A DNA stretch of 64,000 bases from positions 7,496-71,495 of the forward strand of contig JABINC010000075.1 in NCBI GenBank assembly GCA_018697675.1. The letters are read 5' to 3'. The translations under genes were made by a program, and so were the position numbers. Origin of the DNA: Candidatus Peregrinibacteria bacterium (GTDB taxonomy: Bacteria; Patescibacteriota; Gracilibacteria; UBA1369; JABINC01). Numbering within the stretch: the stretch's first letter is position 1; each line of letters opens with the position of its first letter. The notes below the pieces were generated by a model. The model was not told where the DNA came from, did not search any database, and was given only the letters and a program-made list of their open reading frames with translations. Positions 2,761 to 54,342 of the stretch are shown in pieces.

Positions 2761-3570
2761 CTATTCTAAGATTTCTAAGACCTCTCCAGTTAATGAAACT
2801 TTTGCTTTTATCGTATTCATAATTAATCCTCCAAAAGCATTTTTACCTCTAAATGTTGTTTCAACAACTATGTGACCATTCATGTTCCAGTATGAGGTTT
2901 TTACATGTTCGTAACTTCCAGGGTCATTCATGGACTCTTTTATTGAGCGAGTTAGTTTAATGTGTGACCCATCCCATGCACTAAATTGAGCTTCAATTAA
3001 TTCTTTCCGCTTTTCTTTTTCAGCGATTGCGAGAGTCAAAGTTCTTATCTCAGTATTATTCTCAAGCTTATTTATGAAGCGTTGGTTTAATTCTGTATTT
3101 TGAAAATAAGTTGTTGTTAACTCTTTCTTGTTAAGAAGTTCAAAGTCACTATCTGACATCTCTACTAATGTTCGTTCTAGAAACTCTTCAGATTGGAAGT
3201 TTAAAATTTCATTCTCTAAAGCAAATGCTGGATTGGTGCTTTTAGAAGAATTGAGTATTTCAGATTGATCCAAAGCAGTTAATGCTTCATTGAGCTTGTC
3301 TTCAGAAATATAGCTTTGAGCTTGCGTTACAAGGCTCGTAGCCTCTTCTCTTCTTTCATTTGACCCAATGCTACCTGAAAATAAAATAATGGCACACAAG
3401 AGAGTAATAGCTATTTTTACCCATTTATTCCATTTTGTTTTTGTCCATACGAGATATGGTACGGTGATTGGGAATAAAGATATGACCAAAAGGATTCCCC
3501 ACCATTTTTTATACCAAGGTTTTGAAGTAGTTTGTGTGTGTTCCATATTTTTCAGGTTAAGTTTTAACAA
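2761..3570 (-). CDS. Membrane-anchored protein with coiled-coil region and conserved C-terminal globular domain
   Basis: 269 aa. Two N-terminal hydrophobic helices (WWGILLVISLFPITVPYLVW, VKIAITLLCAIILFSG). C-terminal FSAWDGSH...NDPGSYEH...FRGKNAFGG domain. True start may be the internal ATG (MEHTQ) at 3544-3546. Confidence 0.6.
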   Translation of the reverse strand: MLKLNLKNMEHTQTTSKPWYKKWWGILLVISLFPITVPYLVWTKTKWNKWVKIAITLLCAIILFSGSIGSNERREEATSLVTQAQSYISEDKLNEALTALDQSEILNSSKSTNPAFALENEILNFQSEEFLERTLVEMSDSDFELLNKKELTTTYFQNTELNQRFINKLENNTEIRTLTLAIAEKEKRKELIEAQFSAWDGSHIKLTRSIKESMNDPGSYEHVKTSYWNMNGHIVVETTFRGKNAFGGLIMNTIKAKVSLTGEVLEILE

Positions 3571-3574
3571 AAAG

Positions 3575-3709
3575 GGGCTACGAGGTCGCCCACAATCACT
3601 TGCTCACTAGGAGTAGCCGATATGGCTCGTAGCCCGTCTCTACCCATATCGGGGTACAGAAACGGACAGTTTCCCTAGTGAAAAAAACTATGATTGTGTG
3701 CGACAATCA
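3575..3709 (-). ncRNA. Candidate structured cis-regulatory leader / ncRNA (nested stems plus pseudoknot to the start region of the 2761..3570 gene)
   Basis: Hand pairing gives four stems. S1: 3585-3598 with 3691-3704 (13/14 bp). S2: 3604-3611 with 3674-3681 (8 bp). S3: 3617-3625 with 3644-3652 (9 bp). S4: 3659-3663 with 3669-3673. The S3 loop (3626-3635) is perfectly complementary (10 nt) to 3575-3584, next to the start codon. A competing hairpin exists at 3691-3709. Confidence 0.4.
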
Positions 3710-3743
3710 GATACTACAAAAAAGCCTTTATAACAGCAAGTAA

Positions 3744-4931
3744 TTATCTATTTTCAAGATAAACTTCTAAGTTAAAGTCATCATCTTTAGGTACAAATTC
3801 TTCTAGGATGTATATATTGAGCATAACTCTTGCTAAAATGAATGCTTCTAGAAATGAGCATGGCATGAGATTAGGGTACCAATCTTGGTTAAACCGGTTA
3901 TGTGGATGAACGTAATCAGTTCTTTCATCATAGCATTCTTTTAGCCAAGTTGCGTAAGGGCATCCAAAGTTTTTTATTAACAAGTCGTCCAAATCTGCAA
4001 TTTTTTCTAATTCATATTTTTCCATTAAAAGTTTCGTGACACCATCTAGGCAGAAACACAGTAATGCATTAGCTTCTTCATGTAGAATTAGATGGTTTTT
4101 GAAGGCGCATGCCTTTGTATAGTAATACAGGCACCTCATTAGTACTCCGTTTGAAGTGTCAATTTTCTTCATTAGTTTTTCACATCTATCTTCTTCATCC
4201 TTTGCTAGTTTATTTGTGCAAAACTTTCCTTTTGAACCTTCCGAATGAAAGATCGAAATTTTATTTAGGAGAGTTATAGTTTTTTTAATTTCTTTTACTG
4301 TGTTTTGATCTAGCTCTTTCGAATTAAGATCGTAAAAATCTGCATTAAGGTAGTACTCGTTATCTCCTATGAAAAAGTTGTACTCTCCTTCATCTCTTGC
4401 AAGATTTAGAGCGGAGATCAGCTTTATTGATGACTTTTGCATCCTACAAAGACCTCCATCAGCATCCTCTTCGTCTATCATACCAAAGAATGATCTTTTA
4501 CCAGCTGTAAGTAAGTAGGGCACTCCGTTATTTACAATAAATGCACTTTTTGTTGTTATAAATTCTTTTTGTGGAATCGTGCTAGTGCCAAAGCTTGAGA
4601 ACGATTCTAAGGTATTTATAAGCACTCCCAATTTTTTACTACTCGATAATTTCTTTGATCTTTTTACTTTGATCTTATTCCAAGCTTCGTTAAATTTTTG
4701 ACGTATATCCCCTTGTTTACTTCTATCATTTTCGACATCATCAAGAAAGTTATCAAACATTAATCTTTGAATATTCTTGTCTTTGTTTCGGATAATTTTT
4801 TTCATTATCCCATCTTCTATCTTAAAGTGTTTGCCCGCTAGAATATACCTTTCATCAAGGGCTTTGATAATGTCTTTTTTGTTTTTTAGACTCTCTATTT
4901 TCTCGACTAATTTATAAAGCTCTTCTTTCAT
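3744..4931 (-). CDS. Hypothetical protein with C-terminal Rx4H (HEPN-like) motif
   Basis: 395-aa ORF. Helical C-terminal region contains ERTDYVH (nt 3906-3923), matching the Rx4-6H HEPN signature. No other family motif recognised. Confidence 0.55.
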   Translation of the reverse strand: MKEELYKLVEKIESLKNKKDIIKALDERYILAGKHFKIEDGIMKKIIRNKDKNIQRLMFDNFLDDVENDRSKQGDIRQKFNEAWNKIKVKRSKKLSSSKKLGVLINTLESFSSFGTSTIPQKEFITTKSAFIVNNGVPYLLTAGKRSFFGMIDEEDADGGLCRMQKSSIKLISALNLARDEGEYNFFIGDNEYYLNADFYDLNSKELDQNTVKEIKKTITLLNKISIFHSEGSKGKFCTNKLAKDEEDRCEKLMKKIDTSNGVLMRCLYYYTKACAFKNHLILHEEANALLCFCLDGVTKLLMEKYELEKIADLDDLLIKNFGCPYATWLKECYDERTDYVHPHNRFNQDWYPNLMPCSFLEAFILARVMLNIYILEEFVPKDDDFNLEVYLENR

Positions 4932-6245: not shown

Positions 6246-6251
6246 AAATCT

Positions 6252-6380
6252 ACTTCGGGTGTACCCCTCCAGTACTTTTGGGATTTGGAAAGGTGCCCTC
6301 AAAACATCGGCTTTTATAAGCCAAAAGCAGTTACCTTTTTAGCACTTCTAGACATGGTAAATATAGGGGGCAGTTTTTTT
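6252..6380 (+). ncRNA. RNA-like module copy 1 (no tRNA-like end)
   Basis: 6252-6360 is 107/109 identical to 7376-7484. It is followed by ATAGGGGGCAG plus a T-run. ACCCCT at the 5' side can pair with AGGGG(G) near 6364-6369. No credible ORF or SD. Confidence 0.4.
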
Positions 6381-7369: not shown

Positions 7370-7375
7370 TTATTT

Positions 7376-7522
7376 ACCTCGGGTGTACCCCTCCAGTACT
7401 TTTGGGATTTGGAAAGGTGCCCTCAAAACATCGGCTTTTATAAGCCAAAAGCAGTTACCTTTTTAGCACTTCTATACATGGTAAGGGTGGGGTCTCGGGT
7501 TCGACTCCCGAAGGTGGCTCCA
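7376..7522 (+). ncRNA. RNA-like module copy 2 ending in a tRNA-like T-arm + CCA (reduced tmRNA-like or tRNA-like RNA; identity unresolved)
   Basis: T-arm TCGGG-TTCGACT-CCCGA (7495-7511), then AGGTGGC-T-CCA (7512-7522). Closing helix ACCCCTCC (7387-7394) with GGGTGGGGT (7485-7493). Internal GGGATTTGG..AAGGTGC recalls the tmRNA helix-2 region. There is no canonical GGGG acceptor and no convincing tag ORF. Confidence 0.4.
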
Positions 7523-11348: not shown

Positions 11349-12317
11349 TTAAGCGAGAGAATCTTTGTTTACTAAGAATTCAGGTGTTTTGTCAGTGAGA
11401 GCATCGATCAGATTCGCCGCTGCCATTATCGACATCTTGGTACGGGCTTCGATAGTTGCCGAGCCTAGATGAGGGATGATTATAGCATTTTTGCAATCTT
11501 TGAGTCCCGGTTTCATAGCTGGTTCATCTTCGAAAACATCCATACCTACGTAGAAATCAGGATTATTTTGAAGGTGTGTTACGAGAGCTGTTTCATCGAT
11601 AATCGCTCCGCGGGCTGTGTTGATCAGAGTTGCGGTTGGTTTCATCATTTGGAATTCTTTTTCTCCAATTAAATGCTGCGTGGCTTCGCATAGATTTGCG
11701 TGAATTGAAATATAATCAGATTCACGACAGAGTGTTTCGAGGTCGACATGAGTTGCGCCCATTGCATCTAATTCTTCATTTGCACTTGGATCTGCGTATA
11801 GGATTTTCATATCAAAAGCAGCCATTTTTTTCGCCATATTCGTACCTATTCGGCCAGCTCCGATAATTCCGAGAGTTGCACCTGTAACCTCTTTTCCAAG
11901 AAGTAGCATTGGAGCCCAGCCTTGGAATTTTTCAGATCTCATGTATTCATCTGATTCGACAATTCTTCGCGCTGCTGAGAACAAAAGTGAAATTGCGCAG
12001 TCCGCGGTAGCATCATCCAATACTCCTGGAGTGTTGGTTACCATTATCCCGCGCTCACTCGCTGCATCCACTCGGACATTGTTGTATCCAACAGCATAGT
12101 TAGAGATAACTTTACACTGCGACCCGATTGCATCCATAGCTTCTGCATCCATGTTGTCAGTGAGTAGAGAAAGTACTCCATCTCGTCCTTTGATTTCGTT
12201 GAGTAATTCTTCACGAGTTAAAACTCGATCATGAGGATTCATATCGAATTCACCGAAAGCCTCTTTTAGCATCTCTAAACCTTCTTTCGGAATACGACGT
12301 GTTACGTATATATTCAT
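11349..12317 (-). CDS. D-isomer-specific 2-hydroxyacid dehydrogenase (glyoxylate/hydroxypyruvate reductase-like)
   Basis: 322 aa. NAD-binding GIIGAGRIG and catalytic R/E/H region (NTARG...IIPHLGSAT). Confidence 0.85.
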   Translation of the reverse strand: MNIYVTRRIPKEGLEMLKEAFGEFDMNPHDRVLTREELLNEIKGRDGVLSLLTDNMDAEAMDAIGSQCKVISNYAVGYNNVRVDAASERGIMVTNTPGVLDDATADCAISLLFSAARRIVESDEYMRSEKFQGWAPMLLLGKEVTGATLGIIGAGRIGTNMAKKMAAFDMKILYADPSANEELDAMGATHVDLETLCRESDYISIHANLCEATQHLIGEKEFQMMKPTATLINTARGAIIDETALVTHLQNNPDFYVGMDVFEDEPAMKPGLKDCKNAIIIPHLGSATIEARTKMSIMAAANLIDALTDKTPEFLVNKDSLA

Positions 12318-12373
12318 ATATTTTGAATTAAAATGTTATTTTTCTTTTATTCATAAGGGACATAGCCTATAGG

Positions 12374-13567
12374 CTATGTCTGGTAAACACTTTCTATGTA
12401 ACTCTTAATTTTTGCAAGCCCATCTCGAATATCTTCTTCACTTGAAACATATGAGAATCGAACTAGGTCTTCTCCGAAATGCCCAAAGACTGTTCCAGGA
12501 AGGATAAGAACGTGTGCTTCACGCATTATGCGATCGCAAAGTTCAGCTGATGTGATGCTGAATTTATCGAGAAGTTCGCGAACATTTACCATCAAGTAGA
12601 AAGCTCCTTTTGGTGAATGACAATTCATTCCAGGAATTTCATTTACAAGCCCAACCATCAGATCTCTGCGGTTCTTGTATTCTTGAAGCATGTATTCTAC
12701 TTGCTCTTGCGGACCTGTCAGCGCCTCTAGTGCGGCATACTGAGTCATTGTGTTTACGCAAGAAGTGTCATTACAAGCCAATTGCTCGATGTACGCGGCC
12801 ATCTCAGCATTTTTTGTAACAGCCCAACCGATTCGGTATCCCGTCATTGCAAATGTTTTCGAACATCCGTTTAGGATCACAGTTCGCTCTGGCATTCCTT
12901 CGAAATTAGTGATTGAAACATGCTCTCCTTCATGAACCATTCGGTCGTAAATTTCGTCCGAAAGTACCCAAAGGTCATGTTTTTTCGCGAGCTCCGCAAT
13001 ACCGGCAAGAAGTTCGCGAGTGTACACTCCACCAGTTGGATTTTGTGGAGAATTCACCATTATAAGTTTTGTATTTGGAGTAATTTTCGCCTCCAATTCT
13101 TCGATTGTGAAATTGAAATCATTCTCTTGCCTAAGTGCGATCGGTACAACAGTTGCTCCTAGATATTCAGTCACTGATCCGTAAATCGGGTAAGAAGGAT
13201 TTGGGACGATAACTTCGTCTCCTGGATCGAGAAGAGCATTCATCATGTAAAACATAACCGGCTTTCCACCGGAAACTACGATTACATCCTTCGCTTCATA
13301 TTCAACGCATGCGTTTTTTGAAGTTTCTGCGGCAATAGCTTCTCGAAGCACTGGAAGTCCCGGAGTTGGAGTGTAGTGAGTTTGGTTGTCTTTCACCGCT
13401 GCGATTGTTGCATTTTTGATGTTTTCTGGAGTGTCAAACCCAGGTTCTCCAATTTGTAGGTAAACCAATTTTACGCCACTTTCTTTCTCAAATTGTTTTG
13501 CTTTTGTAATTACTGCAAAGGCATTTTCCGTACCGAGATTTGGCATTCTTTTTGAAAAGGATTTCAT
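12374..13567 (-). CDS. PLP-dependent aminotransferase, class I/II
   Basis: 397 aa. NSPQNPTGG, and SKTFAMTGYRIGW carrying the PLP lysine. Confidence 0.85.
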   Translation of the reverse strand: MKSFSKRMPNLGTENAFAVITKAKQFEKESGVKLVYLQIGEPGFDTPENIKNATIAAVKDNQTHYTPTPGLPVLREAIAAETSKNACVEYEAKDVIVVSGGKPVMFYMMNALLDPGDEVIVPNPSYPIYGSVTEYLGATVVPIALRQENDFNFTIEELEAKITPNTKLIMVNSPQNPTGGVYTRELLAGIAELAKKHDLWVLSDEIYDRMVHEGEHVSITNFEGMPERTVILNGCSKTFAMTGYRIGWAVTKNAEMAAYIEQLACNDTSCVNTMTQYAALEALTGPQEQVEYMLQEYKNRRDLMVGLVNEIPGMNCHSPKGAFYLMVNVRELLDKFSITSAELCDRIMREAHVLILPGTVFGHFGEDLVRFSYVSSEEDIRDGLAKIKSYIESVYQT

Positions 13568-14598: not shown

Positions 14599-15457
14599 TT
14601 TGTGCAGGGGTTAAAGAATTTTCTAGTGCATCGAGCTCAGTTATAGCTAGCCCGAGATGTTCGTGGTCTGGCGCTTTTCCGTGCCATCCTGCGACATTTT
14701 CCATATAAGAAATACCCTTACCTTTTATAGTGTGGGCGATAATTACTTTTGGCCTTCCTTTCAGTGTTGCCGCCTCATCTAGGGCTGCGCGGATTTGTTC
14801 GAAATCATGTCCATCTTCTACAACCAGCGTGTGCCAGTTAAAAGCTTTGAATTTTTCATCAAGTGGGTGAACACCCATTATATCTTCGCAATGTCCGTCG
14901 ATCTGCAATTTGTTGTAGTCCACAAGTAGAGTTAGATTATCGAGCCCAAAATGAGCTGCTGACATAATTGCTTCCCAGCTTTGCCCTTCTTGCAGGTCTC
15001 CTTCGCTAGAAAGTGCCCAAACCTTATTTGGTTTTCCTTGAGTTTTTAAGCCCAGTGCAACTCCAGTTGCTATCGATAAATTCTGCCCGAGAGAACCTCC
15101 TGACATTTCCATTCCAATTGGGTGAAAACGGCAAGGATGCCCTTGTAAATCTGAGCCGAGTTTTCGGAAAGTTAATAGTGTCGCTGGATCAAAATATCCA
15201 ACTCTTGCGAGGATTGAATAGATCGCCGGGGTTATGTGACATTTACAAAAGATCATGTAATCACGTTCGATCCATGTCGGATTTTCCGGATCATGTTTGA
15301 TGTACTCGTTGTAGAGTGTCACCAGCATTTCCACAGCCGAAAGCGATCCGCCGGGGTGTCCCGACCCCGCCGCGTTTGTCATTTCGACAATATCACGCCG
15401 CATTCGAATAGCCTTCCGCACGCGCTGTTCTGGCGTTAAAGTGAGAGGGTACTTCAT
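14591..15457 (-). CDS. Transketolase, N-terminal (TPP-binding) subunit
   Basis: 288 aa. GSGHPGGSLS, and GDLQEGQSWEA with LLVDYN (GDG..N-type TPP motif). Confidence 0.9.
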   Translation of the reverse strand: MKYPLTLTPEQRVRKAIRMRRDIVEMTNAAGSGHPGGSLSAVEMLVTLYNEYIKHDPENPTWIERDYMIFCKCHITPAIYSILARVGYFDPATLLTFRKLGSDLQGHPCRFHPIGMEMSGGSLGQNLSIATGVALGLKTQGKPNKVWALSSEGDLQEGQSWEAIMSAAHFGLDNLTLLVDYNKLQIDGHCEDIMGVHPLDEKFKAFNWHTLVVEDGHDFEQIRAALDEAATLKGRPKVIIAHTIKGKGISYMENVAGWHGKAPDHEHLGLAITELDALENSLTPAQND

Positions 15458-15597
15458 ACGTTAAAATTAAGTGTAGTTCGAATGTTGTTAGCCAAATCCA
15501 AGCCGCATCATCTTAAATCTTCTTAATTGTCAGAGCAAGCCGTCTTTGGTTAACAGAACATGCTCTGATTATCTTGCAAGTTTTTGTCGTATTTTGC

Positions 15598-15640
15598 ATA
15601 TAAAAAACCAGAGCTCCCCCGTATAAAGGAAGCCCTGGTT
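15598..15640 (-). terminator. Probable rho-independent terminator after the 15662..16312 gene
   Basis: Imperfect stem AACCAGGGCUUCC / GGGGAGCUCUGGUU (plus-strand 15606-15640), followed on the minus strand by a U-run (A-run 15602-15607 on plus). Confidence 0.5.
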
Positions 15641-15661
15641 AACCCTATCAAAATGTGCGTG

Positions 15662-16312
15662 TTATTGTTGTGGTCCTTTTCTCATCATCTTGTGAGGTGG
15701 TTTGAGGCCGAGTTCTTCCATGATATCTTTTGCTCCTTCTTTGTCTCCAGCTTCTCTGAGTTCGTGAGCTTTGATCATTAGTTCGAAGTTTTCTTCAGTG
15801 ACTTTTTCTTGAAGTTTTTCAGGTGCTTTTTCTAGGAATGTATTGTAATCACCTGATTCGAAAATTTGTTTCATTTCTTCTCGATGCTCCTGTCTGTTCT
15901 CTTTCTTTTTCATGTTTTTTTGCATTTTCTTCATGCCTTTGTGAGGTTTCTCTATCCCAAGTTCATCCATAATGCTGCGAGCTCCTTCACGATCTCCCGC
16001 TTCTCTGAGAGAGTGGATCTCCATGAGAGAAGAAAAGTTATCCTCATTTATAGTTGAGAAATGACCTTTGTCGGTTGTGATTTCTGCGAAAGTTGCATAA
16101 TCACCAGATGAGATAGCATCTTTTACGGCTTGATGCTTGGCTTGCATCTCTTCGTGTTTAACTTGCATTTCAGGATTCATTTCGAAGTCGTCGGAATTGT
16201 TGTAACCGACAGCGGCAAATACATTTCCAGCGATCATTGAGACAAGTGCCGCTGAGATCAATATGGCCGGTAGAGCAAACTGACGATTTTTTAGAAGTTT
16301 TTTGGTTTCCAT
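15662..16312 (-). CDS. Secreted two-repeat helical protein (possible envelope-stress output)
   Basis: 216 aa with signal/anchor (ALPAILISAALVSMIAG). Internal duplication LREAGDREGARSIMDELGIEKPHKGMKKM / LREAGDKEGAKDIMEELGLKPPHKMMRKG. Confidence 0.6.
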   Translation of the reverse strand: METKKLLKNRQFALPAILISAALVSMIAGNVFAAVGYNNSDDFEMNPEMQVKHEEMQAKHQAVKDAISSGDYATFAEITTDKGHFSTINEDNFSSLMEIHSLREAGDREGARSIMDELGIEKPHKGMKKMQKNMKKKENRQEHREEMKQIFESGDYNTFLEKAPEKLQEKVTEENFELMIKAHELREAGDKEGAKDIMEELGLKPPHKMMRKGPQQ

Positions 16313-43193: not shown

Positions 43194-45248
43194 ATGACGA
43201 AAGACGATAATTGCAAAGGTGAAACAGAGAAATTATTCAAACTTGTGAGTCCATTTGAGCCGGCGGGTGACCAACCGCAGGCTATTGAGCAGCTGACGAG
43301 GGGGCTCAATAAAGGGGTGAAGGATCAGATTCTACTTGGAGTTACTGGAAGTGGAAAAACTTTCACAATGGCGCAGGTTATTAATAAAATCCAGAAGCCA
43401 ACTCTGATTTTGGCGCACAATAAAACTTTGGCGGCGCAGCTTTGCTCTGAGTTTCAAGAATTTTTCCCTGAAAATGCGGTGAGTTATTTTGTATCTTATT
43501 ATGATTATTATCAGCCGGAGGCTTATCTTCCGGTGAGTGATACATATATTGCGAAAGACGCTTCGATAAATGATGAAATTAACAAATATCGACATACTGC
43601 GACGATGAATCTCCTTACTCGAAAAGATGTAATTATCATTGCTTCGGTCTCTTGTATTTATGGGCTGGGATCTGTTCAGGATTATAAGGCTCTGGCGATT
43701 ACTTTGAAAGTAGGTGAGATGATGAAACGAGACACACTTCTTCGTCGACTTACTGATATTCAATACACTCGCTCGGGGAACGACTTCAAGCCGGGCATGT
43801 TTCATGTACTTGGTGATGTTGTCGAGATTTTTCCGCCGAGTAGTGATGACTATGTTTATAGGCTCGAATTCTTTGGAGATGAGATCGAAAATATTGTAGA
43901 AGCAGATAGTTTTACAGGAGAGGTTAGAGCAGAACTTTCTGAGACGACTATTTTTCCGGCGAAGCATTCTGTAACCACAGAAGAAAAAGTCAAAGGTGCG
44001 ATAGAAGGAATTCAGGCTGAATTATTTGAACGTCATGCGCAGCTTCTTGAAATTGGAAAGGCTTTAGAAGCGGAAAGGCTCAAAACTCGTACCGAATATG
44101 ATATCGATATGCTTCGTGAAACTGGATATGTGACTGGGATTGAAAATTACGTTCGATATTTTGATTACAATGGAGAAGAGGGTAGGCGGCCGACAACTTT
44201 GATGGATTATTTTTCTGATGATTTTTTACTTTTTATAGATGAGTCTCATATCACGGTTCCGCAAATTGGTGGAATGCATGGTGGGAATTATTCTCGGAAA
44301 AAAACTTTGGTGGAGCATGGATTTAGGATGCCATCATCTTTTGATAATCGTCCGTTGAATTTTCCAGAATTTGAAAAATTTATGAATAGGGCGGTTTATG
44401 TTTCGGCGACTCCTAGCAAATATGAATATGCACATACTTTGCAGGAAAATATTGCCGAGCAGATTGTTCGGCCGACTGGACTTATAGATCCGGAGGTAAA
44501 AGTAAAATCTTCGAATGGACAGATAGATGATATAAAAAAAGAGATCTCTGAGACGATTTCTCGAGGCGAGCGGGTACTTATTACCACTTTGACCAAAAAA
44601 TCTGCTGAGAGGCTCACTGAATATCTCGTTGAAGGAGGGATCAAGGTTCGTTATCTACATTCGGATATTGATACGATGGAGCGAATTGAAATTCTGCGCG
44701 ATCTTCGTCTTGGAAAATTTGACGTACTAGTTGGGATCAATCTTCTGCGTGAAGGACTGGATCTTCCTGAGGTTTCGTTCATTGCGATTTTGGATGCCGA
44801 TAAGCAAGGATTTTTGCGTTCGACATCAGCTCTTATTCAAACTATTGGACGGTGTGCTCGTAATGTGAGTGGTCATGTGACGATGTACTCTTCCGAAGTT
44901 GAAGAAGATGGAAAGACTCATCTCAAAATTACCCCTGCGATGCGAGAAGCTCTGGATGAAACTGATCGTCGTCGTATGATTCAGGTAGCTCATAATACCA
45001 AGCATAATATAACCCCGGAGACGATCAAAAAGGCCGTTAGGGATATTACAATCGGTGGAGCTACGAAGCTTCGTACCAAGAAACGTGATAAACAAAAAAT
45101 TCCAAAAGAAGAAATCGCTCGTTACATCACATCTCTCGAAGCGGAGATGGATATCGCTTCTCTAAACATGCAGTTCGAAAAAGCAGCCGACCTCCGTGAT
45201 GAGATTGACACTTTGAAACAGGAGAATGGGATGCTTGGGGTGCTTTAA
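43194..45248 (+). CDS. uvrB: Excinuclease ABC subunit B
   Basis: 684 aa. Walker A GVTGSGKTF, beta-hairpin region YYDYYQPEAY, and a C-terminal UVR domain. Confidence 0.95.
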   Translation: MTKDDNCKGETEKLFKLVSPFEPAGDQPQAIEQLTRGLNKGVKDQILLGVTGSGKTFTMAQVINKIQKPTLILAHNKTLAAQLCSEFQEFFPENAVSYFVSYYDYYQPEAYLPVSDTYIAKDASINDEINKYRHTATMNLLTRKDVIIIASVSCIYGLGSVQDYKALAITLKVGEMMKRDTLLRRLTDIQYTRSGNDFKPGMFHVLGDVVEIFPPSSDDYVYRLEFFGDEIENIVEADSFTGEVRAELSETTIFPAKHSVTTEEKVKGAIEGIQAELFERHAQLLEIGKALEAERLKTRTEYDIDMLRETGYVTGIENYVRYFDYNGEEGRRPTTLMDYFSDDFLLFIDESHITVPQIGGMHGGNYSRKKTLVEHGFRMPSSFDNRPLNFPEFEKFMNRAVYVSATPSKYEYAHTLQENIAEQIVRPTGLIDPEVKVKSSNGQIDDIKKEISETISRGERVLITTLTKKSAERLTEYLVEGGIKVRYLHSDIDTMERIEILRDLRLGKFDVLVGINLLREGLDLPEVSFIAILDADKQGFLRSTSALIQTIGRCARNVSGHVTMYSSEVEEDGKTHLKITPAMREALDETDRRRMIQVAHNTKHNITPETIKKAVRDITIGGATKLRTKKRDKQKIPKEEIARYITSLEAEMDIASLNMQFEKAADLRDEIDTLKQENGMLGVL

Positions 45249-45868
45249 GCAGTCTTCGCTTTCACAATCATAGAGACGATTTTTTCCATTCGGGATTTTT
45301 CGTTGAGGGCTTGTTCAATGAATTTCATTGTGTCCTCTAGGTTTGGAATCATTACATGTTCTAGAGCGTTTACTCTTCGGCGGGTTTTTTCGAGCTCTGC
45401 GGCCATGCGTTCTGCCTTCTTTTCAATTGCTGCGAGTTTGACTAGCGTTGGAAGAAATTCTTTTAATTTTGCGAGTCCTGTATCGAGGTCTCCAGTTGTA
45501 TGTAGAAATCCGTAGGTTCCTTTGTCTTCAGAAAACTTAGCTTCCATCTCAGCAATTTTTACACTCATAATGTTTTTCACTTCAACAGCTAGAGATGCTG
45601 TCATAGTTGGTTTGAGTAGAGCTGCTTCTATGAATTCTGGGTGGGAAGTAGATGCCGAAGCGAGTAGAAGACGTGTGAAAACTTCTCCAAGATTAGCTTC
45701 CGCTTCTTCTCTGAGACGCTTTGCTTCACGGATTATTTCCATGAAAGCCTGCATCAAACCCTCTTGTTTGTCGTTTAGGAGCTTGTGACCTTTTTTGGCA
45801 CGCTTAGCTTTATTTTTAAGCTCTAGTAGCGCCATTTTGGTCGGACTGTATCCTGCGAGTATAGCCAC
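45245..45868 (-). CDS. atpD: V/A-type ATP synthase subunit D
   Basis: 207-aa coiled-coil central-stalk protein, last gene of the operon. GTG start. Overlaps the uvrB stop by 4 nt. Confidence 0.85.
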   Translation of the reverse strand: MAILAGYSPTKMALLELKNKAKRAKKGHKLLNDKQEGLMQAFMEIIREAKRLREEAEANLGEVFTRLLLASASTSHPEFIEAALLKPTMTASLAVEVKNIMSVKIAEMEAKFSEDKGTYGFLHTTGDLDTGLAKLKEFLPTLVKLAAIEKKAERMAAELEKTRRRVNALEHVMIPNLEDTMKFIEQALNEKSRMEKIVSMIVKAKTA

Positions 45869-45901
45869 TGTGATTAAAGTTAAATATATTTATTTTTTAG
45901 A

Positions 45902-45984
45902 GTTGACTCGTGTTCGTCTGTAATTTCTTTTACGCTTGTCGTCTGTCGCTCGCGTAGAAATTACGACTTAACAGCTTCGTCAAC
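45902..45984 (-). other. Intercistronic long stem-loop (B-D junction), 5' arm inside the end of the B gene
   Basis: On the mRNA, GUUGAC...UCGUAAUUUCU ACGC..GCGU AGAAAUUAC..GACGA..GUCAAC. There is a 9-bp perfect inner stem, and the outer GUUGAC/GUCAAC pairing is shared with the other two elements. Confidence 0.45.
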
Positions 45985-47364
45985 GGGTAGATACTTGTCA
46001 ATTAACTCATCCTTAATACGTTTCAATTCTGAACGTGGGAAGATAGATAGAAGCTTCCAACCATGATCTAGTGAGTCGGATACCATTCGGTCTGTTTCAC
46101 CTTGAGAAACGTAAATTTCTTCAAATTTGTCAGCGAATTTTAGGTATTTTCGGTCGATGTCTGAAAGTGAACTTTCACCCAAGATTACTGCTAGCTCACG
46201 CATTTCTAAACCGTATGCATATGCTGCAAATAGCTGTGCTATCACACCTTTGTGATCCTCACGAGTCTTACCTTCACCTTGTCCATTACCCATCAAACGA
46301 GATAGAGATGGAAGAACTGAAACCGGTGGATATAGCCCCTTTTTGTGAAGGTCACGTCCAAGTACAATTTGTCCCTCGGTGATGTATCCTGTTAGGTCAA
46401 TAATCGGATGAGTAATATCGTCATTTGGCATGGTCATTACTGGGATCTGAGTTACAGTTCCTTTTTTGCCACGTAGACGTCCTGCTCGTTCGTATAGTGT
46501 AGATAGGTCAGTGTACATGTAACCTGGGAAACCTGCACGACCTGGCACCTCTTTACGAGCCGCAGAGATCTCACGAAGGGCCTCACAGTAGTTTGTTACA
46601 TCAGTGTAAATTACAAGTACGTGCATACCTTTTTCAAATGCCAAGTACTCAGCGGTTGTCAGAGCAAGTCGCGGAGTCGCGATACGCTCAACCACTGGAT
46701 TGTCTGCGGTGTTGATGAATAGAACTGAATTTTCGATCGCTCCAGTTCGTTTAAATTCTTCGATAAAGTACTGAGCTTCTTCGAATGGAACTCCCATCGC
46801 TGCAAATACGATTGCGAAGTTTCCACCTCCTTCTCCATCTGCGCTGATAACCGTTGCCTGACGTGCAATCTGTGCAGCTAGCTTGTTATGTGGTAAACCT
46901 GATCCTGAGAAAATAGGAAGTTTTTGTCCACGTACAAGTGTGTTTAGTGCATCGATTGTAGAAATACCAGTTTGAATAAAGTCATCTGGCATCTCACGAG
47001 AAGCTGGATTCATAGGTGCACCGTTGATGTCGATTTTTTTCTCTGGAATGATATCTGGACCACCATCGATAGGTACTCCACGTCCGCTGAACGTGCGTCC
47101 AAGCAGATCTTCTGATACTCCAAATTGGAAAGTTTCTCCTAGGAATTTTGCTTTTGCATTTAGTGTTGCAGCCCCTTGAGGAGATTCGAAAAGCTGTACT
47201 ACAGCTAACCCCTCTTGAGATTCCAATACTTTTCCTAAACGAACTTTCCCATCATCTGTCCGGATTTCTACGAGTTCTTCGTAGCTTACCGGCTCATCAT
47301 TTGGAAGCTCTACGAATGCGAGAGGTCCAACGATGTCTCTTACAGTTTTATATTCTTTTTGCAT
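45961..47364 (-). CDS. atpB: V/A-type ATP synthase subunit B
   Basis: 467 aa, non-catalytic nucleotide-binding subunit (SGSGLPHN...). Strong C-ending codon preference (TAC, TTC, ATC, CGT). Confidence 0.95.
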
Positions 47365-47414
47365 AGGTTGTAAATAAAATTATATTGTTATATTTTTAAT
47401 TTTTTTCATTTTCG

Positions 47415-47464
47415 GTTGACTCGTTCTCGTCTCTGACACAGTCATGACTCGAACTTCCCCAACT
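47415..47464 (-). other. Intercistronic stem-loop (A-B junction)
   Basis: Begins 1 nt after the A stop codon. Helices GUUG/CAAC, GUUC/GAAC, GUC/GAC, UGAC/GUCA. Covaries with the K-E element. Confidence 0.5.
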
Positions 47465-47465
47465 G

Positions 47466-49226
47466 TTAAGCCAAGCTTGTGATTCCGCTTTGTAGTCTGT
47501 TTTGCAGATCTTCGAATTGCTCATCCTCGTCCAAGTCTTTTACCTTTGGAATTTCTTTTACTGCATCTAGGTTTTTCAATGCTTCCATATCAAACTCTTC
47601 ATTTTCAACTAATTCTTGAGCCGCTTTGTATACGGTTAGAATTGTTTTTAACATTTGATATTGTTTCTTGAGCGGAGTTCTAGCATCTTTTGCATCAAAT
47701 GAGTTTTGATACAGGTAGTCCTCACGAAGCATCTTTGAAACCATCAAAATAAGCTGCTCTTTTCCTGAGAGTGAATCAGCTCCAACAAGACGTACAAGCT
47801 CTTCTAGTTTTGCTTCTTGTTGTAGAAGGTCCATAGCAAGATTTCTGTATTCTGGCTGGTCCTCTGCGACTTCACGCCTCATGTAGCCTTCAACATTGTC
47901 TTGATAAAGAGAGTAGGAAGTTAGCCAGTTGATCGCAGGGTAGTGACGAGAGTATGCGAGCTTAGAATCAAGTCCCCAGAATACTTTCACTACACGAAGT
48001 GTGTTTTGTGTAACCGGCTCAGAGAAGTCTCCACCTGGAGGTGATACCGCTCCGATAACTGTTAGTGATCCTTTTCGATCTTCTGCCCCGAGACAATCAA
48101 CGTAACCTGCACGTTCGTAGAATGCTGCAATACGAGAAGCGAGGTAAGCAGGGTAACCTTCCTCACCAGGCATTTCTTCTAGACGTCCTGACATCTCACG
48201 CATCGCCTCTGCCCAACGAGAAGTTGAGTCGGCCATGAGTGCAACATCGTAACCCATGTCTCGGTAGTACTCTGCAATTGTGATACCTGTATATACAGAT
48301 GCCTCACGAGCTGCTACCGGCATGTTAGAAGTATTTGCAATTAGGATTGTTCGTTTCATAAGTGGTTCTCCCGTGTTCGGATCTTCAAGATGCGGGAATT
48401 CAACAAGCACCTCAGTCATCTCGTTACCACGCTCTCCACATCCGATGTAGACGATGATTTGCGCATCACAGTACTTAGCAAGTGTTTGCTGAGTCACTGT
48501 TTTACCTGCACCAAATGGTCCAGGAATTGCTGCCGCTCCACCTTTTGTAAGAGTGAAGAATGTATCGATTGATCGTCCTCCAGATACTAGAGGAATTGAT
48601 GGAATGTTTTTCTTCTTAATTGGTCTTGGAATACGAATTGGCCATTTTTGTACCATTGTTACTTTATGTTTTTCCCCGTCTTCGTCTTTTAGAACAGCAA
48701 CTACTTCATCAATTGTCATTGAACCTGAGTTAACTTCTTCTACTGTAGCTTTTGAGATTCCTGCTGGAACCATGATTTTGTGCTCGATAAGAGTTGTTTC
48801 TTGAACAGTTCCAAGTACGTCACCAGCCTCTACAGCTTGCCCTTTTGAAGCCACCGCTTTGTAATCCCATTTTTTATCATGATCTAGTCCAGGTACTTCA
48901 ACTCCACGTGTGATAAATGGCCCTACCTTTGCCTCAATAGCCGAAAGAGGACGTTGAATACCGTCATAAATACTTTGAAGCAGTCCAGGTCCGAGTTCCA
49001 CAGAAAGAGTATTTCCAGTTCGTTCTACCGGCTCACCTGGGGCAACCCCACTAGTTTCTTCGTAAACCTGTATTGAAGCTGAGTCGCCTTCAAGTCGGAT
49101 AACCTCTCCAACGAGATGCTCCCTCCCAACTCTAACTACCTCGTACATTTTTGCGCCTTCCATACCTTTGGCAACGACCAGAGGTCCAGAGACTTTAATA
49201 ATTTTTCCTGTTTTGAGCTTTTCCAT
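47466..49226 (-). CDS. atpA: V/A-type ATP synthase catalytic subunit A
   Basis: 586 aa. Walker [10 protein letters not shown] and the non-homologous insert typical of A subunits. Confidence 0.95.
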
Positions 49227-49247
49227 ATTTTTGAATTAAGTTGTTTT

Positions 49248-49598
49248 TTATAAAATGTTACTTCCAATAGCTTTCTCTACTATTTTTCCGAGTTTCTTCA
49301 TTCCAAGTCCTGTAGATCCTTGTACTCCTGGGATAGTCAGAATTGCTGGAAGCATTCCTTCCGAAAGACGTTTCATGTCATCTTCTGGGAAGTGAGTAGC
49401 TAGGTCTTCGGTTACCATGATGATTGCGTAACGTGGAATATCTTCATTGTCAGAATCTTTTACAGTTTCGTTTTTTAGTTCTTTTATGGCAGTTAAGGCT
49501 TCTTCGCTTGTGGTAGCACTTACTGCTGTTATGCCGATTGCTTTGAATCCTAGAATTACATCTTTTTGACCGATGATGGCGATTGAATAATTGTTCAT
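49248..49598 (-). CDS. atpF: V/A-type ATP synthase subunit F
   Basis: 116 aa. Size, position and IAIIGQKD...GFKAIGI pattern. Confidence 0.75.
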   Translation of the reverse strand: MNNYSIAIIGQKDVILGFKAIGITAVSATTSEEALTAIKELKNETVKDSDNEDIPRYAIIMVTEDLATHFPEDDMKRLSEGMLPAILTIPGVQGSTGLGMKKLGKIVEKAIGSNIL

Positions 49599-49599
49599 A

Positions 49600-50634
49600 T
49601 TAATACAATTTTCTTATATGTTTTCTAATAATTTCAGGGTCTATCTTTGAGATTTTTGATAGAAGGATTAGTCGGATAATCTGAGCTGTGTTATTTTTTG
49701 CCCAGAAAAATGCGATCAATGGAGCGATTCCATAAGTAACCGATTTGGCAGTTCGAATAAAATCTGTAACGTGATTTTTTGTAAGTTCTTCTAGAGTTGC
49801 AATTGTTTTTGAAGTCTCACATTCTTCGGCGATGCGTTGACCGATTGCTTTGTAATGAGTTTCTTTCAGACCATTTGGAATTTCTGTAATACTTTTTCCT
49901 GCAAGTACTGAAAGCTCAAATTTATCGAGAAGACCTCCTGCAGCAAAAACTTTTTTGATTTCTTCTGGCTCGGTGTTTTTCAACTTCATGCGGAACAAAG
50001 AACCAATGTTGAATAGGTCGATGTTTTTGACGGCAAATTCGGTCAGGAATTGATCTCTGGATCGAATGGCTATATCGAGAGCAAGCTCCAAGTATAATTT
50101 ATCTAAAATTAAATCAATGATTTGAAAATCTTCATCTTTTGCATAGGTCGTTTCAACAAGGCGGATTGTTTCTACAAAACGCTCTGTGTGTCCCTCGAAT
50201 TCAGTATCTGGAAAGCTAGTTCCTTCTGTTCGGAAGTAGGCTTTTAACTTCTCTAAATCAAGACTTCCAAGCGAACTCAAAAGTTTATCTAGATCTTCTT
50301 CCCATATTTTCTCCACCTTACCCTTTAAAAGGGTTTTTATATTGTGAATGTCATAAAAATACCAAAGGATATTTAGGAATTCCGACTGTGGTGAGATTTT
50401 TTTCAACATCACCGCTGTCTCGAGGAGTTCTGCATCAATTACTTCTTGGAACTGATCCATTTTATCGATGTCGAGAGTATGATTTGAATATCCTGTTTCA
50501 TTTAGAATTTTGAATGCTTCTTTTACATCTGAAACACCAATCATACGTTCTATTTCATTTTCATTGAGCATTCTTGCTTCTTGAGAACGAATTCTTCCGA
50601 GCGCGTGCGCGAATTGTGTGTCGTTTAAGGTCAT
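49600..50634 (-). CDS. atpC: V/A-type ATP synthase subunit C (d)
   Basis: 344-aa helical protein, called by operon position between E and F. Confidence 0.7.
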   Translation of the reverse strand: MTLNDTQFAHALGRIRSQEARMLNENEIERMIGVSDVKEAFKILNETGYSNHTLDIDKMDQFQEVIDAELLETAVMLKKISPQSEFLNILWYFYDIHNIKTLLKGKVEKIWEEDLDKLLSSLGSLDLEKLKAYFRTEGTSFPDTEFEGHTERFVETIRLVETTYAKDEDFQIIDLILDKLYLELALDIAIRSRDQFLTEFAVKNIDLFNIGSLFRMKLKNTEPEEIKKVFAAGGLLDKFELSVLAGKSITEIPNGLKETHYKAIGQRIAEECETSKTIATLEELTKNHVTDFIRTAKSVTYGIAPLIAFFWAKNNTAQIIRLILLSKISKIDPEIIRKHIRKLY

Positions 50635-51188
50635 TAGTTGAATAACTTATATGCTACGTCTGTCTCGAGTTTTCCTCGAAGTGAAGAAACTAAAGTTTCG
50701 AAAGAGAGATCAATTTCTACGTCATCTGTTATGATGATACATCCTCCTGTGAAGGTTCCTTCAGATACTACTTTGTAGTCTTTTTTTGTTTTTTTAAGAG
50801 CGTCTGTAGTTTCCGAAGTCTTACCTTTGGCTGCGATTACAGTCGCTTTTGACAGGTCGATATTTTTCAGGAGTTTTGCCAAAACATCTACGTAATCTTT
50901 TGAAGATGCCAATTTAGCAATCGCTTCTTCAAATGCAATATTTAACGCCTCTCTTTTTGCTCTGAGAATCATGGTTTTACGCTCCATGTTCTTGTGAGCT
51001 TCTGTTTTTTTCTCAATGCTTTTCCCTTTTTCTTCAACTCTTACCTTGTAGTTTTCTTTTAGATTCTCTTTTCTTTTTTCATGCTCTTCGGAAAGTTTCG
51101 TAAGAGCCTTTCCTAGCGCAGCTTCCAATTCTTGGATAGCCTTGTTCTTTTCAGCATCGATATCATTTATGATGTCTTGAATTGTCAT
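50634..51188 (-). CDS. atpE: V/A-type ATP synthase subunit E
   Basis: 184 aa. N-terminal coiled coil plus C-terminal globular part. Called by operon position. Confidence 0.7.
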   Translation of the reverse strand: MTIQDIINDIDAEKNKAIQELEAALGKALTKLSEEHEKRKENLKENYKVRVEEKGKSIEKKTEAHKNMERKTMILRAKREALNIAFEEAIAKLASSKDYVDVLAKLLKNIDLSKATVIAAKGKTSETTDALKKTKKDYKVVSEGTFTGGCIIITDDVEIDLSFETLVSSLRGKLETDVAYKLFN

Positions 51189-51271
51189 TTTTGTAGAAAT
51201 TTAATGATAATTTTTCACTGTAATTCGTGATTGTACTAATTTGTACTTTGATTCGGCATACTCTCCTTTCG

Positions 51272-51318
51272 GTTGATTTGATCTTATCTCTGACAAGTCA
51301 GGATTCGATCTTCGTCAA

Positions 51319-51319
<1 letters not shown>
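51272..51319 (-). other. Intercistronic stem-loop (K-E junction), overlapping the K stop codon
   Basis: Helices GUUGA/UCAAC, GAUC/GAUC, GAU/AUC, CUGAC/GUCAG. Same architecture as the A-B element, with compensatory base changes. Confidence 0.5.
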
Positions 51320-51852
<533 letters not shown>

Positions 51853-51885: not shown

Positions 51886-53859
51886 TTATTTTTCTTGTTC
51901 TTCTAAGAGAATATAATTGCTTTCTTTTCGGAGGGGCCTAAACGGCTTTCCGCCTCCGACTAGGAATTTCGAGAAGAATTCTACGAATTGGAGACGAGCT
52001 GCGTGAATAAATGCTCCAAGTGCATTAACCACAAGGTTGAATAAATGTCCTCCGATTAAAACTATGATAACTAGGATCCATCCTATGAATGGAATACCAC
52101 TTACAAGTCCTGCAACTACGTTTACGGCAAGTCCGATAATGGCTGTTGCGAGTCCGAGTGCGAGTAGACGAGAGTAAGATAAGACGTCTCCGAAGTATCC
52201 GACTAATCCATAAAGGCTGAGGATTCCGGAAATTGCTTTTCCAGCGATACTTGGCTTGTCGCGACCTTGAGTAAGGACTAATGAGATCAGTCCTCCGTAG
52301 AGAAAGTACAATCCCAATGTTCCAATTCCAGCAGCGAGCACCCCCGCTTTCCCCATAATAACTACTGCCAATGCTATCAAAGTTGCAAACCATGTTAAAT
52401 GGTCGAGTACGGCATTCTTTTTTGAGCCATGATTATATTCACTTATAAATGCGATAAATACTCCAAATGCAACCTGCGTATAACCAACTACTAGAGAAAG
52501 TATTAGTACGGTCATTGGGTCTTCGATTGGATTGAAAATCTGCCCTATAAATTTCAAGCTTTCACCTTCACCAGTTAATAAAAATGCTGGAGCTTGGTCC
52601 GCTGTCATTCCGAACCATCCTCCATATAGAAGTCCCATTATAAAGGTGAGGATTCCTGCGTACATCAATAATTTCACAAAACTTTTAATTTGCTTTGAAA
52701 GGTTCAAATATTTGAGAACAAGTAACATAGTTATCATCATCACAAGTCCATAACCAGCATCTGTAACTGCCATTCCAAAGAATGCAATAAAGAAAATAGA
52801 GATAAATGCAGTTGGATCGTATTCACTTGGAATAGGTAGTCCATACAGAGTTGTCACGTTTTCGATTGGTTGGAGGAGTGCGTGATTTTTTAGAGCTACC
52901 GGAGATGGTTCATCAGTTTCTATTGGTATAATTGCAATCTTATTATTCGTCTTATCTCTTAGGATGTTTTCTATTTCAACAGTCTCTGCAATTGGTATCC
53001 ATCCCGAAAATGCAAAAGTCATTGCTGAATCCAAGCTGCTCTCGCATACTCCAGTTAGGTCTTTTTGCCATTTGAAATAGTCGTGAATTATCTGAACCGT
53101 TTCATAGTTTGCAGCCAGTTTTTTAAGCTCTTTTTCCATGTCTGCCAAAGTTCTTAGAGCTTCTTTTTTCTGAGTTTCAATGTTTCTGAGAGCCTCCTTA
53201 ATATTAGTTTCAACTTTTGGAAGCATTACTTCTTTTACTTTCACTTTTGTGAAAATCTCCTTAATGCGTTTTGAATATTCTTTATGATGTATCATCGACA
53301 CATAATTAGTGCTCTTTGATGAATTCACAGTCTGTATATCGATTAATGGACCAACTTCTGCCAATTCTTTTTCGAGAGTTTCCAAGTCTTTGTCACCAAT
53401 TAACAAATATGTAGCTAGGTAGCCATTGCTTTCTAAAACCTCTTTTGGAGAAATATTAGCTTTTGCCCATGGTTTTAATTCAGTCTCTGCCTGTTCGAGT
53501 AATTCAAGTGTGGTTTTTGCGTTTGAATAATTTGTTTCTAGATCTTTACAAGTCTTTGCTAGTTCTTCGTATTCGAAATTCTCAGCAACAGCTTTCGCCT
53601 TTTTCTCGTTTACCGTTATTGGCCCTTCTAGTGCGCCTCTTTTTTTCGCGAAAGGGGAGAGAAGCTTGATCACGAATTCGAGATTTGCAACCAATAAATC
53701 TAAGTCATGATTTTCTGCTGGATTTTTCCTCCAATGATCTGAGTCCAATAAAACCTCTTCTATTTGCAAAACTTCGAGATCTTGAAGCGCTTTTAACACT
53801 TTCTTTTTATCGCGTTGCATTCCTATCAGATTGACTTTTTGTAGTTTGATTACTGCCAT
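51886..53859 (-). CDS. atpI: V/A-type ATP synthase subunit I (a)
   Basis: 657 aa. Cytoplasmic coiled-coil N-half and a multi-TM C-half with the conserved Arg region (LSYSRLLALGLA). Confidence 0.85.
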   Translation of the reverse strand: MAVIKLQKVNLIGMQRDKKKVLKALQDLEVLQIEEVLLDSDHWRKNPAENHDLDLLVANLEFVIKLLSPFAKKRGALEGPITVNEKKAKAVAENFEYEELAKTCKDLETNYSNAKTTLELLEQAETELKPWAKANISPKEVLESNGYLATYLLIGDKDLETLEKELAEVGPLIDIQTVNSSKSTNYVSMIHHKEYSKRIKEIFTKVKVKEVMLPKVETNIKEALRNIETQKKEALRTLADMEKELKKLAANYETVQIIHDYFKWQKDLTGVCESSLDSAMTFAFSGWIPIAETVEIENILRDKTNNKIAIIPIETDEPSPVALKNHALLQPIENVTTLYGLPIPSEYDPTAFISIFFIAFFGMAVTDAGYGLVMMITMLLVLKYLNLSKQIKSFVKLLMYAGILTFIMGLLYGGWFGMTADQAPAFLLTGEGESLKFIGQIFNPIEDPMTVLILSLVVGYTQVAFGVFIAFISEYNHGSKKNAVLDHLTWFATLIALAVVIMGKAGVLAAGIGTLGLYFLYGGLISLVLTQGRDKPSIAGKAISGILSLYGLVGYFGDVLSYSRLLALGLATAIIGLAVNVVAGLVSGIPFIGWILVIIVLIGGHLFNLVVNALGAFIHAARLQFVEFFSKFLVGGGKPFRPLRKESNYILLEEQEK

Positions 53860-53888: not shown

Positions 53889-54227
53889 TTAAGATGCGAA
53901 TTCCGTTTCAAATGTTTCCAATATGATTTTTACAGCTTCGTCGGTTTGTTTTGAGGCATTGTTTTTTAGAGCCTCTGCCTCTGACATTGCCGCTTTTAAT
54001 TCACTATTTGCTTTTTCGGTAGCTTTCGCTTTGATTTCTCGAAGCTGTCCCATTCCTTCAGCTTTAAGTCCTTCTTCATATTCTTTCAACTCGGTTTCTT
54101 TCGCTAATTTGGCTTCAGCAAGAGCTTCAGCGTTTTTGTGAGCTTTGCGTTCAATATCTTTTTCTGCCGACCCCTCAGTGTTCTGAATCTGAGCAAATGG
54201 ATCTGAATGTGTACTTGTGTCGTTCAT
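53889..54227 (-). CDS. Small coiled-coil protein, probable peripheral-stalk subunit (G/H-like)
   Basis: 112 aa, A/E/K-rich helix. First gene of the ATPase operon. Confidence 0.45.
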   Translation of the reverse strand: MNDTSTHSDPFAQIQNTEGSAEKDIERKAHKNAEALAEAKLAKETELKEYEEGLKAEGMGQLREIKAKATEKANSELKAAMSEAEALKNNASKQTDEAVKIILETFETEFAS

Positions 54228-54313: not shown

Positions 54314-54342
54314 ATTTTAGTGACGGCAAGTTTAAATGTCAA
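54314..54342 (-). promoter_or_regulatory. Near-consensus sigma70 promoter of the V/A-ATPase operon
   Basis: Minus-strand TTGACA (54337-54342), 17-nt spacer, TAAAAT (54314-54319). About 85 nt upstream of the first ATG. Confidence 0.5.

Follow-up and report, generated by a model that had tools for sequence, protein, structure and literature searches.

Paralogous intercistronic stem-loops in the V/A-ATPase operon of a Peregrinibacteria bacterium and their possible role in protecting mRNA

Results

The V/A-ATPase operon and its three long spacers

We analyzed a stretch of 64,000 nucleotides from Candidatus Peregrinibacteria bacterium (positions 7,496 to 71,495 of the forward strand of contig JABINC010000075.1, assembly GCA_018697675.1), referred to here as the window, in which a V/A-ATPase operon carries long hairpins in the spacers behind three of its genes. 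The operon is a nine-gene cluster on the minus strand, with one promoter-like site upstream and the gene order (112-aa gene)-I-K-E-C-F-A-B-D. Among species-representative genomes, the closest A subunits are 74–80% identical and are all labeled as members of the Peregrinibacteria/Peribacteria group, and near-identical contigs are present in ENA assemblies. The features of the operon are as follows.

54314-54342, minus strand: strong promoter-like site TTGACA-17-TAAAAT, ahead of the operon's first gene (promoter scan)
53889-54227, minus strand: 112-aa gene (gene map)
51886-53859, minus strand: I (gene map)
51319-51840, minus strand: K, proteolipid c, 173 aa, PF00137 (gene map and Pfam)
50634-51188, minus strand: E (gene map)
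49600-50634, minus strand: C (gene map)
49248-49598, minus strand: F (gene map)
47466-49226, minus strand: A subunit, 586 aa (gene map)
45961-47364, minus strand: B subunit, 467 aa, with the C-terminal tail VDEAVKS encoded by the B-D element
45245-45868, minus strand: D subunit, last operon gene (gene map)

In gene order the spacers measure 29, 45, 130, −1, 1, 21, 101, and 92 nt. Long spacers thus occur only at the K-E (130 nt), A-B (101 nt), and B-D (92 nt) junctions, as an initial annotation of this sequence had stated. At the other end of the operon, D and a convergent uvrB-like gene share 4 nt, which leaves the operon without a terminator hairpin behind it. The preference for C-ending codons that the initial annotation noted in A and B is real (0.54 and 0.58, respectively, compared with an average of 0.29 in other genes), but it is not special to them: it is raised across most operon genes (D 0.54, E 0.56, F 0.56) and reaches the window maximum in K (0.78). 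The operon genes, here and in relatives, are without Shine-Dalgarno sequences, and their leaders contain little G and much A, C, and T.

Position, structure, and stability of the hairpins

Every long spacer opens with an interrupted hairpin, and all three hairpins share the same orientation on the mRNA. They lie at, within 2 nt of, or overlapping the stop codons of K, A, and B, in agreement with their earlier placement at the start of each long spacer. Copies were scored with the covariance model R1, which was made from K-E and A-B.

51272-51319, minus strand: K-E hairpin copy, stems GUUGA/UCAAC, GAUC/GAUC, AUC/GAU, and UGAC/GUCA; 83 bits with R1
51267-51271, minus strand: 3′ tail CGAAA of the K-E copy, same as in A-B
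47415-47463, minus strand: A-B hairpin copy, same four stems as K-E; 87 bits with R1
47410-47414, minus strand: 3′ tail CGAAA of the A-B copy
45902-45984, minus strand: B-D hairpin copy, perfect outer GUUGAC/GUCAAC stem, GUC/GAC stem, and 9-bp inner stem

The first pair of the K-E hairpin uses the G that ends the TAG stop of K, and the stems of this hairpin are parted by purine-rich internal loops. The A-B hairpin begins 2 nt past the TAA of A and holds a tandem GA/GA internal loop. The CGAAA tail common to the two may belong to the element or provide the context for cleavage. In the B-D copy the apical part is expanded and bears the 9-bp stem, while the UGAC/GUCA apical stem and the CGAAA tail are missing. 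Its 5′ arm (GTTGACGAAG...) codes for the seven C-terminal residues of B, with the TAA located within the inner 9-bp stem, so the earlier description of its three stems and of an arm inside the last codons of B holds. This 5′ arm matches that of K-E at every one of 10 nt, and the 3′ arm matches that of A-B at 15/17 positions. Two very short frames directly follow the hairpins, namely AAAGGAGAGTATG..TAG (MPNQSTN; 51228-51262, minus strand) after K-E and ATG..TAA (MKKIKNITI; 47381-47410, minus strand) after A-B; both probably arose by chance.

The predicted folding energies are −14.4 kcal/mol for K-E, −16.5 kcal/mol for A-B, and −28.5 kcal/mol for B-D. Considered individually, neither K-E nor A-B stands out thermodynamically (z = −1.6 each), whereas B-D does (z = −4.4). 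The sense strand folds better than the antisense strand in two of the three copies, and K-E folds better on the antisense strand. Behind the hairpins stand the sequences CGAAAGG, CGAAAAUG, and UCUAAAAAA, with no T-run after any copy.

Paralogy and compensatory changes

The three elements represent paralogs of a single ~50-nt imperfect palindrome. K-E and A-B are 87% identical over 60 aligned columns, and all 16 pairs of the four-stem structure are kept between them (16/16), while shifting the partners abolishes the pairing. The changes within pairs include two double changes (A-U to U-A and A-U to G-C) and one A-U to G-U, which bears out the shared architecture with compensatory changes that was proposed initially. 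When ten random substitutions were put into the K-E copy, all pairs survived in only 7 of 10,000 trials (P ~7e-4). The columns that differ between the two copies are more frequent among unpaired positions (6/17) than among paired ones (5/32). The motif GTTG..TCAACCGAAA is found twice in the window against 0.03 expected, and TGAC..GTCAGAGA twice against 0.04 expected. It is because of this paralogy and the compensatory changes, and not because of stability, that we count the observation as real.

Copy number and distribution

The initial annotation had suggested that further copies be sought across the genome; the three copies in the operon were recovered, and none were found elsewhere in ~78 kb of the species, which comprises the window and ~14 kb of same-species DNA beyond both window ends (L088-L090). 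In the window, with filters off, R1 found no further copy, and the next best match scored 14 bits. No copy was found in the ~14 kb past the window ends, and among 85 related loci only same-species copies matched. All three copies in ~78 kb are thus within one operon, at junctions of that operon among the 67 gene junctions of the window. A degenerate pattern scan of a metagenome collection yielded two chance matches and did not recover the source genome itself; because that genome is evidently absent from the collection, the scan says nothing on dispersal. A scan of viral contigs gave 17 chance-level matches, none of which R1 confirmed.

Several known element types were considered. Searching Rfam at the gathering threshold identified only two tRNAs in the window, and a search of 45800-51400 at E up to 10 identified nothing relevant, the ATPC motif included. 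An intrinsic terminator was rejected, as no T-run follows any copy and no terminator was called there, whereas other parts of the window do have canonical T-run terminators. A canonical hairpin with T-run at 15445-15674 and a terminator-like hairpin without T-run at 12305-12386 (minus strand) contrast with those of the operon. An internal promoter that would use TTGAC as a −35 box was also rejected: there is no −10 box at a workable distance, and the long spacers hold no promoter-like site on the sense strand. A kink-turn is defined by a three-nucleotide bulge followed by tandem sheared G.A/A.G pairs, between a canonical and a non-canonical stem. By inspection, the GA/GA of A-B is instead a symmetric 2x2 loop without bulge, and K-E has GA/AA and CGAA/AAA.

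A strain-level polymorphism at the B-D junction

A sister-strain contig (L093) is 100% identical to the window over 7,003 nt downstream and ~2,065 nt upstream of the B-D element and has an identical A-B element, yet the B-D element is absent from it. Over these ~9 kb there is no difference beyond the following two features.

45900-45984, minus strand: segment of 85 nt in place of 18 nt in the element-less allele of L093
45985-46006, minus strand: six synonymous differences from L093, clustered in 22 nt beside the B-D element

The B-D copy is therefore a strain-level presence/absence polymorphism. The element-bearing allele was found in a second sample too, so that it is represented by JGI 3300072015 and ERZ4200997, and the element-less allele by ERZ27237597. 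In the element-less allele, the end of B still folds into a small hairpin. Comparing the filled site of the window with the empty site of L093 showed no target-site duplication. Together with its flanking substitutions, the inserted segment looks like a short recombination patch. The site does not show the clean insertion expected of a miniature inverted-repeat transposable element, given the replacement of 18 nt by 85 nt, the missing target-site duplication, and the six flanking substitutions.

Close relatives, sister lineages, and a clade with hairpins throughout the operon

In the locus with the nearest B homologue (L083, 88% identical), B and D overlap and B has a different tail. In L084 (B 83%), the A-B spacer is 26 nt, and the B-D spacer is 64 nt and unstructured. 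In L085 (B 82%), the K-E and A-B spacers are 13 nt and 24 nt, respectively; on this 1.43-Mb contig an extra 103-aa gene without a Pfam match lies between B and D (L085 11408-11719).

The K-E junction differs in this respect. In six sister lineages (L001-L005 and L007), a G+C-rich hairpin with two tiers directly follows the K stop; it is unlike the K-E copy of the window in sequence. In an alignment of L001, L002, L005, and L007, double compensatory changes occur at 6/19 predicted K-E pairs, and several aligned pairs are G-U on the sense strand. The sense strand folds better in 6/6 of the sister hairpins, by 1.2–5.1 kcal/mol. Two loci of the same clade, L006 and L085, are without a K-E hairpin. 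On this comparative evidence, only the K-E position is an older hairpin site among the three, and the sister-lineage hairpins are the best evidence here pointing to an RNA-level role on the mRNA. What the initial annotation expected of related operons was thus borne out for the covarying K-E hairpins of the sister lineages and not for A-B and B-D, where close relatives have short, unstructured spacers.

Junctions were further surveyed in 31 related loci with a clean I-K-E-C-F-A-B-D chain. In one Peregrinibacteria clade (L012, L013, L016, L017, L020, L021, L025, and L030), structured spacers are found at nearly every operon junction, including those after low-copy subunits. They often form long hairpins whose arms are tandem 7–8-nt units and their complements. 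Paralogous hairpin copies exist within single operons of that clade, and a few lie outside the operon; in L021, for example, the I-K hairpin matches the B-D hairpin and the K-E hairpin matches A-B. Many other surveyed genomes have short, unstructured spacers throughout the operon. Across the 31 loci, neither the positions behind K, A, and B nor the operon as a whole showed an excess of hairpins.

Other features of the window

A weak match to transfer-messenger RNA (tmRNA) was detected at 7430-7512 (plus strand; 14.8 bits, E = 0.005), which is under the Rfam cut-off, and ARAGORN finds none. It sits in a 274-nt spacer, 113 nt of which are repeated with 97% identity ~1.1 kb away (~6248-6360 and ~7372-7484). 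Two tyrosine recombinase (Phage_integrase family) genes are located at the left window end, one at 884-1816 (minus strand) and, beyond the edge, one at L089 11430-12326, a few kb from this repeat. One possibility is a divergent tmRNA gene of which an integrating element left a duplicated part behind. A 173-nt spacer at 3558-3756 (minus strand) has a predicted energy of −64 kcal/mol (z = −3.7) and no Rfam match, and is a candidate structured non-coding RNA.

Discussion

The elements in the V/A-ATPase operon form a real, paralogous, and rapidly evolving hairpin family, which is best filed under protective intercistronic stem-loops. We tentatively favor the reading, at a probability of roughly 0.45, that they are fast-evolving intercistronic stem-loops without a U-run that act as barriers to 3′ exonucleases, because they match in position, shape, and energy the class known from SRPS (selective RNA processing and stabilization). 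As in that class, they are intergenic stem-loops directly 3′ of a cistron in a same-strand cluster, and all three copies are without a U-run and have energies in the reported range. On the polycistronic mRNA, each copy would form an interrupted stem-loop just behind the coding region of K, A, or B, and would block 3′-to-5′ exonucleases, possibly in combination with nearby endonucleolytic processing. Since no terminator follows D, the mRNA would decay stepwise from its unprotected 3′ end, and segments containing K would outlast A, then B, then D. The hairpin potential kept between the copies, the orientation, the placement at stop codons, the lack of a T-run, and the covariation of the sister K-E hairpins fit a role as 3′ stabilizers or processing sites. 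The codon signature of K, the strongest high-expression signature in the window, also counts in favor of the exonuclease-barrier reading, as do the clustering of all copies in one operon and the small hairpin at the end of B in the element-less allele. Effects on RNA 3′ ends, half-lives, and subunit ratios are ones that we can only infer. The copies appear to have spread by local duplication or recombination. The youngest is the B-D copy, whose outer stem is the most perfect of the three and which remains polymorphic between strains.

Several observations weigh against a barrier role. The sister strain does without the B-D copy, and the relatives with 82–88% identical B subunits lack the A-B and B-D hairpins, two of them being without K-E as well. 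In the window, K-E and A-B are only moderately stable, as seen from their z-scores, and the K-E copy folds better on the wrong strand for a structure that works on the mRNA. Over the 31 surveyed loci, structured co-directional junctions are 14% within the operon and 10% outside it, and the structured spacers show no overall energy bias towards the sense strand. Because K-E and A-B start so near the stop codon, a terminating ribosome would open their 5′ arm. Placing hairpins after K, A, and B would also leave the low-copy subunits H, I, E, C, and F in protected segments unexplained. The barrier role itself is one that we infer from sequence and structure. For similar reasons, the link to high-stoichiometry subunits made in the initial annotation was not supported and does not generalize: the hairpins after A and B are missing from the closest relatives, B-D is missing from a sister strain, and another clade has hairpins after low-copy subunits too.

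The main rival is that the elements are a small selfish or neutral palindromic repeat, resembling repetitive extragenic palindromic (REP) or miniature inverted-repeat sequences, which has been copied into tolerated intergenic sites and whose effect on the mRNA is incidental. We consider this doubtful, though it accounts for much of the data. The sequence family is specific to the species and absent from all relatives, its B-D copy is present or absent between otherwise identical strains, and the outer stem is most perfect in this youngest copy, a pattern expected where older copies degenerate from a master. The B-D insertion rewrote the C-terminus of B, related genomes have their own hairpin repeat families in and outside the operon, and the folding energies are without an overall strand bias. 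However, a freely spreading repeat would hardly be expected in just three copies in ~78 kb, all in one operon, for which a random choice of junctions gives C(8,3)/C(67,3) ~1e-3. The replacement of 18 nt by 85 nt with a patch of flanking substitutions and without target-site duplication also speaks against it, as do the uniform orientation of the copies and the pairing upheld by compensatory change. Nor is a GTAG-type 5′ tetranucleotide conserved: A-B is preceded by ACAG and B-D by CCCG, and the GTAG before K-E is there only because of the codons TGG-TAG. The Pfam labels obtained for part of the window proteins include tyrosine recombinases and no Y1 transposase. A neutral repeat and an exonuclease barrier are not mutually exclusive, since REP sequences do both.

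It is improbable, in our assessment, that the hairpins serve as sequence-specific sites on the mRNA, either for processing of the RNase III type or as a shared operator through which one RNA-binding protein would co-regulate K, A, and B. Such a role would explain why three irregular paralogous hairpins keep unpaired purines (GAA, GA, and GA) and the UGAC/GUCA apical stem, and why the CGAAA tail is common to K-E and A-B. Tandem GA/GA internal loops keep an RNA helix stacked, and the one in A-B would do so. Early and late mRNAs of phage T7 carry several paralogous, irregular RNase III hairpins of ~50–60 nt between cistrons, and after cleavage the upstream RNA retains a protective 3′ hairpin. The hairpins of the window are like these sites in paralogy, irregularity, size, and position between cistrons. 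Unlike them, K-E and A-B have four stems of 3–5 bp, where T7 sites have two ~10-bp stems around one internal loop. An RNase III substrate is about two turns of near-regular helix. K-E and A-B each form 16 pairs, divided over four short stems, and their longest unbroken helix is 4–5 bp, a length on the short side for this enzyme; B-D has a 9-bp stem with flanking pairs. Against a recognition site it also counts that B-D is without the apical stem and the tail, that no kink-turn geometry is seen by inspection and no Rfam family matched, and that recent duplication can explain the likeness in sequence, with unpaired columns differing more than paired ones.

Two further possibilities receive still less weight. 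Partial terminators or translational uncouplers, which would cut the flow of RNA polymerase or ribosomes into E, B, and D, seem quite unlikely. Hairpins do stand where expression should fall (from K to E and from B to D), the remaining junctions are tight (−1, 1, and 21 nt), and re-initiation may depend on spacing, because the genes are without Shine-Dalgarno sequences and the leaders are G-poor. However, no U-run follows the copies in a genome that has canonical T-run terminators, A and B are required in equal amounts yet are parted by a copy, and relatives cope with short spacers. Very unlikely indeed is a function of the palindromes at the DNA level, as sites for a dimeric regulator or as cruciform-forming sequences. 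The nested palindrome does contain TGAC..GTCA, and both strands fold with similar energies under RNA and DNA parameters alike. Yet four nested arm segments with compensatory changes suit a hairpin and not two half-sites, the DNA hairpin energies of K-E and A-B are weak (−6 to −7 kcal/mol), and the elements lie within the transcription unit, distant from its promoter. Moreover, the sister K-E hairpins use G-U pairs, which exist on the sense strand only.

Protective stem-loops between cistrons have been studied in other bacteria, and the view in the initial annotation that no element of this kind had been described is not sustained: such stem-loops without U-runs are known, including after an ATPase c-subunit gene (PMC4423207, PMC8219983, PMC5927463). 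In Clostridium cellulolyticum, intergenic stem-loops lie 3′ of the most abundant cistrons. A U-run is missing from most of them, and their energies span −6.6 to −31.8 kcal/mol; once the transcript is processed they determine its segment ratios, and they have been gained or lost between species (PMC4423207). The F-type ATPase c-subunit gene is one reported SRPS case (PMC4423207), and a predictor, SLOFE, is described in PMC8219983. Like the SRPS operons of C. cellulolyticum (cip-cel and the F-type ATPase), the operon studied here has stem-loops 3′ of the highest-demand subunit, with energies in the same range and with number and position that vary by species. In those operons processing sites and transcript ratios were measured, whereas the Peregrinibacteria elements are predictions from sequence. 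The paralogy of the three copies is also not a reported SRPS feature, and the ATPase of this host is of the V/A type.

In Escherichia coli, protective 3′ structures shape stepwise decay, as with the REP at malE-malF and the consecutive hairpins in menBCE (PMC5927463). The elements resemble the REP that stabilizes malE mRNA in being a short, imperfect palindrome that is repeated at intergenic sites within an operon and varies between strains, and REP can act as a 3′ exonuclease barrier (PMC5927463). They differ from REP in number, three in ~78 kb compared with hundreds of dispersed copies that have a conserved 5′ GT(A/G)G and a partner Y1 transposase; a REP-nuclease structure is described in PMC3479197. 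With differentially decaying operons of E. coli they share the presence of several consecutive hairpins in one operon, which in menBCE give a stepwise drop in stability; some structures there enter the coding sequence, as B-D does (PMC5927463). Those structures are conserved across E. coli, Salmonella, and Enterobacter, whereas A-B and B-D are not found even in close relatives. The ATPC RNA motif of cyanobacteria is likewise a structured RNA in an ATP synthase operon beside the c-subunit gene, but it forms a junction of three stems that lies between a and c, upstream of c (PMC1950547).

A more speculative extension, which we regard as a long shot, is that the elements represent a self-copying RNA module for tuning operons. 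Such a module would spread within and between Peregrinibacteria ATPase operons by recombination and be kept by selection after high-copy genes, perhaps recognized by one RNA-binding protein or nuclease through its purine loops. Gain and loss of the B-D copy would then retune subunit ratios in natural populations.

Our results leave the current understanding of such structures unchanged and add to a known class one more example, from an unstudied lineage. If the exonuclease-barrier reading is true, an organism of the candidate phyla radiation, whose genome is very small, would rely in part on cheap, fast-evolving RNA structures to set the ratios of its ATPase subunits, and a mechanism known from Clostridium and E. 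coli would be extended to this group. The B-D case illustrates how the C-terminus of a conserved protein can be altered by such a hairpin. The most useful lead is the existence of natural alleles with and without the B-D copy, which offer a ready-made comparison for environmental transcriptomes.

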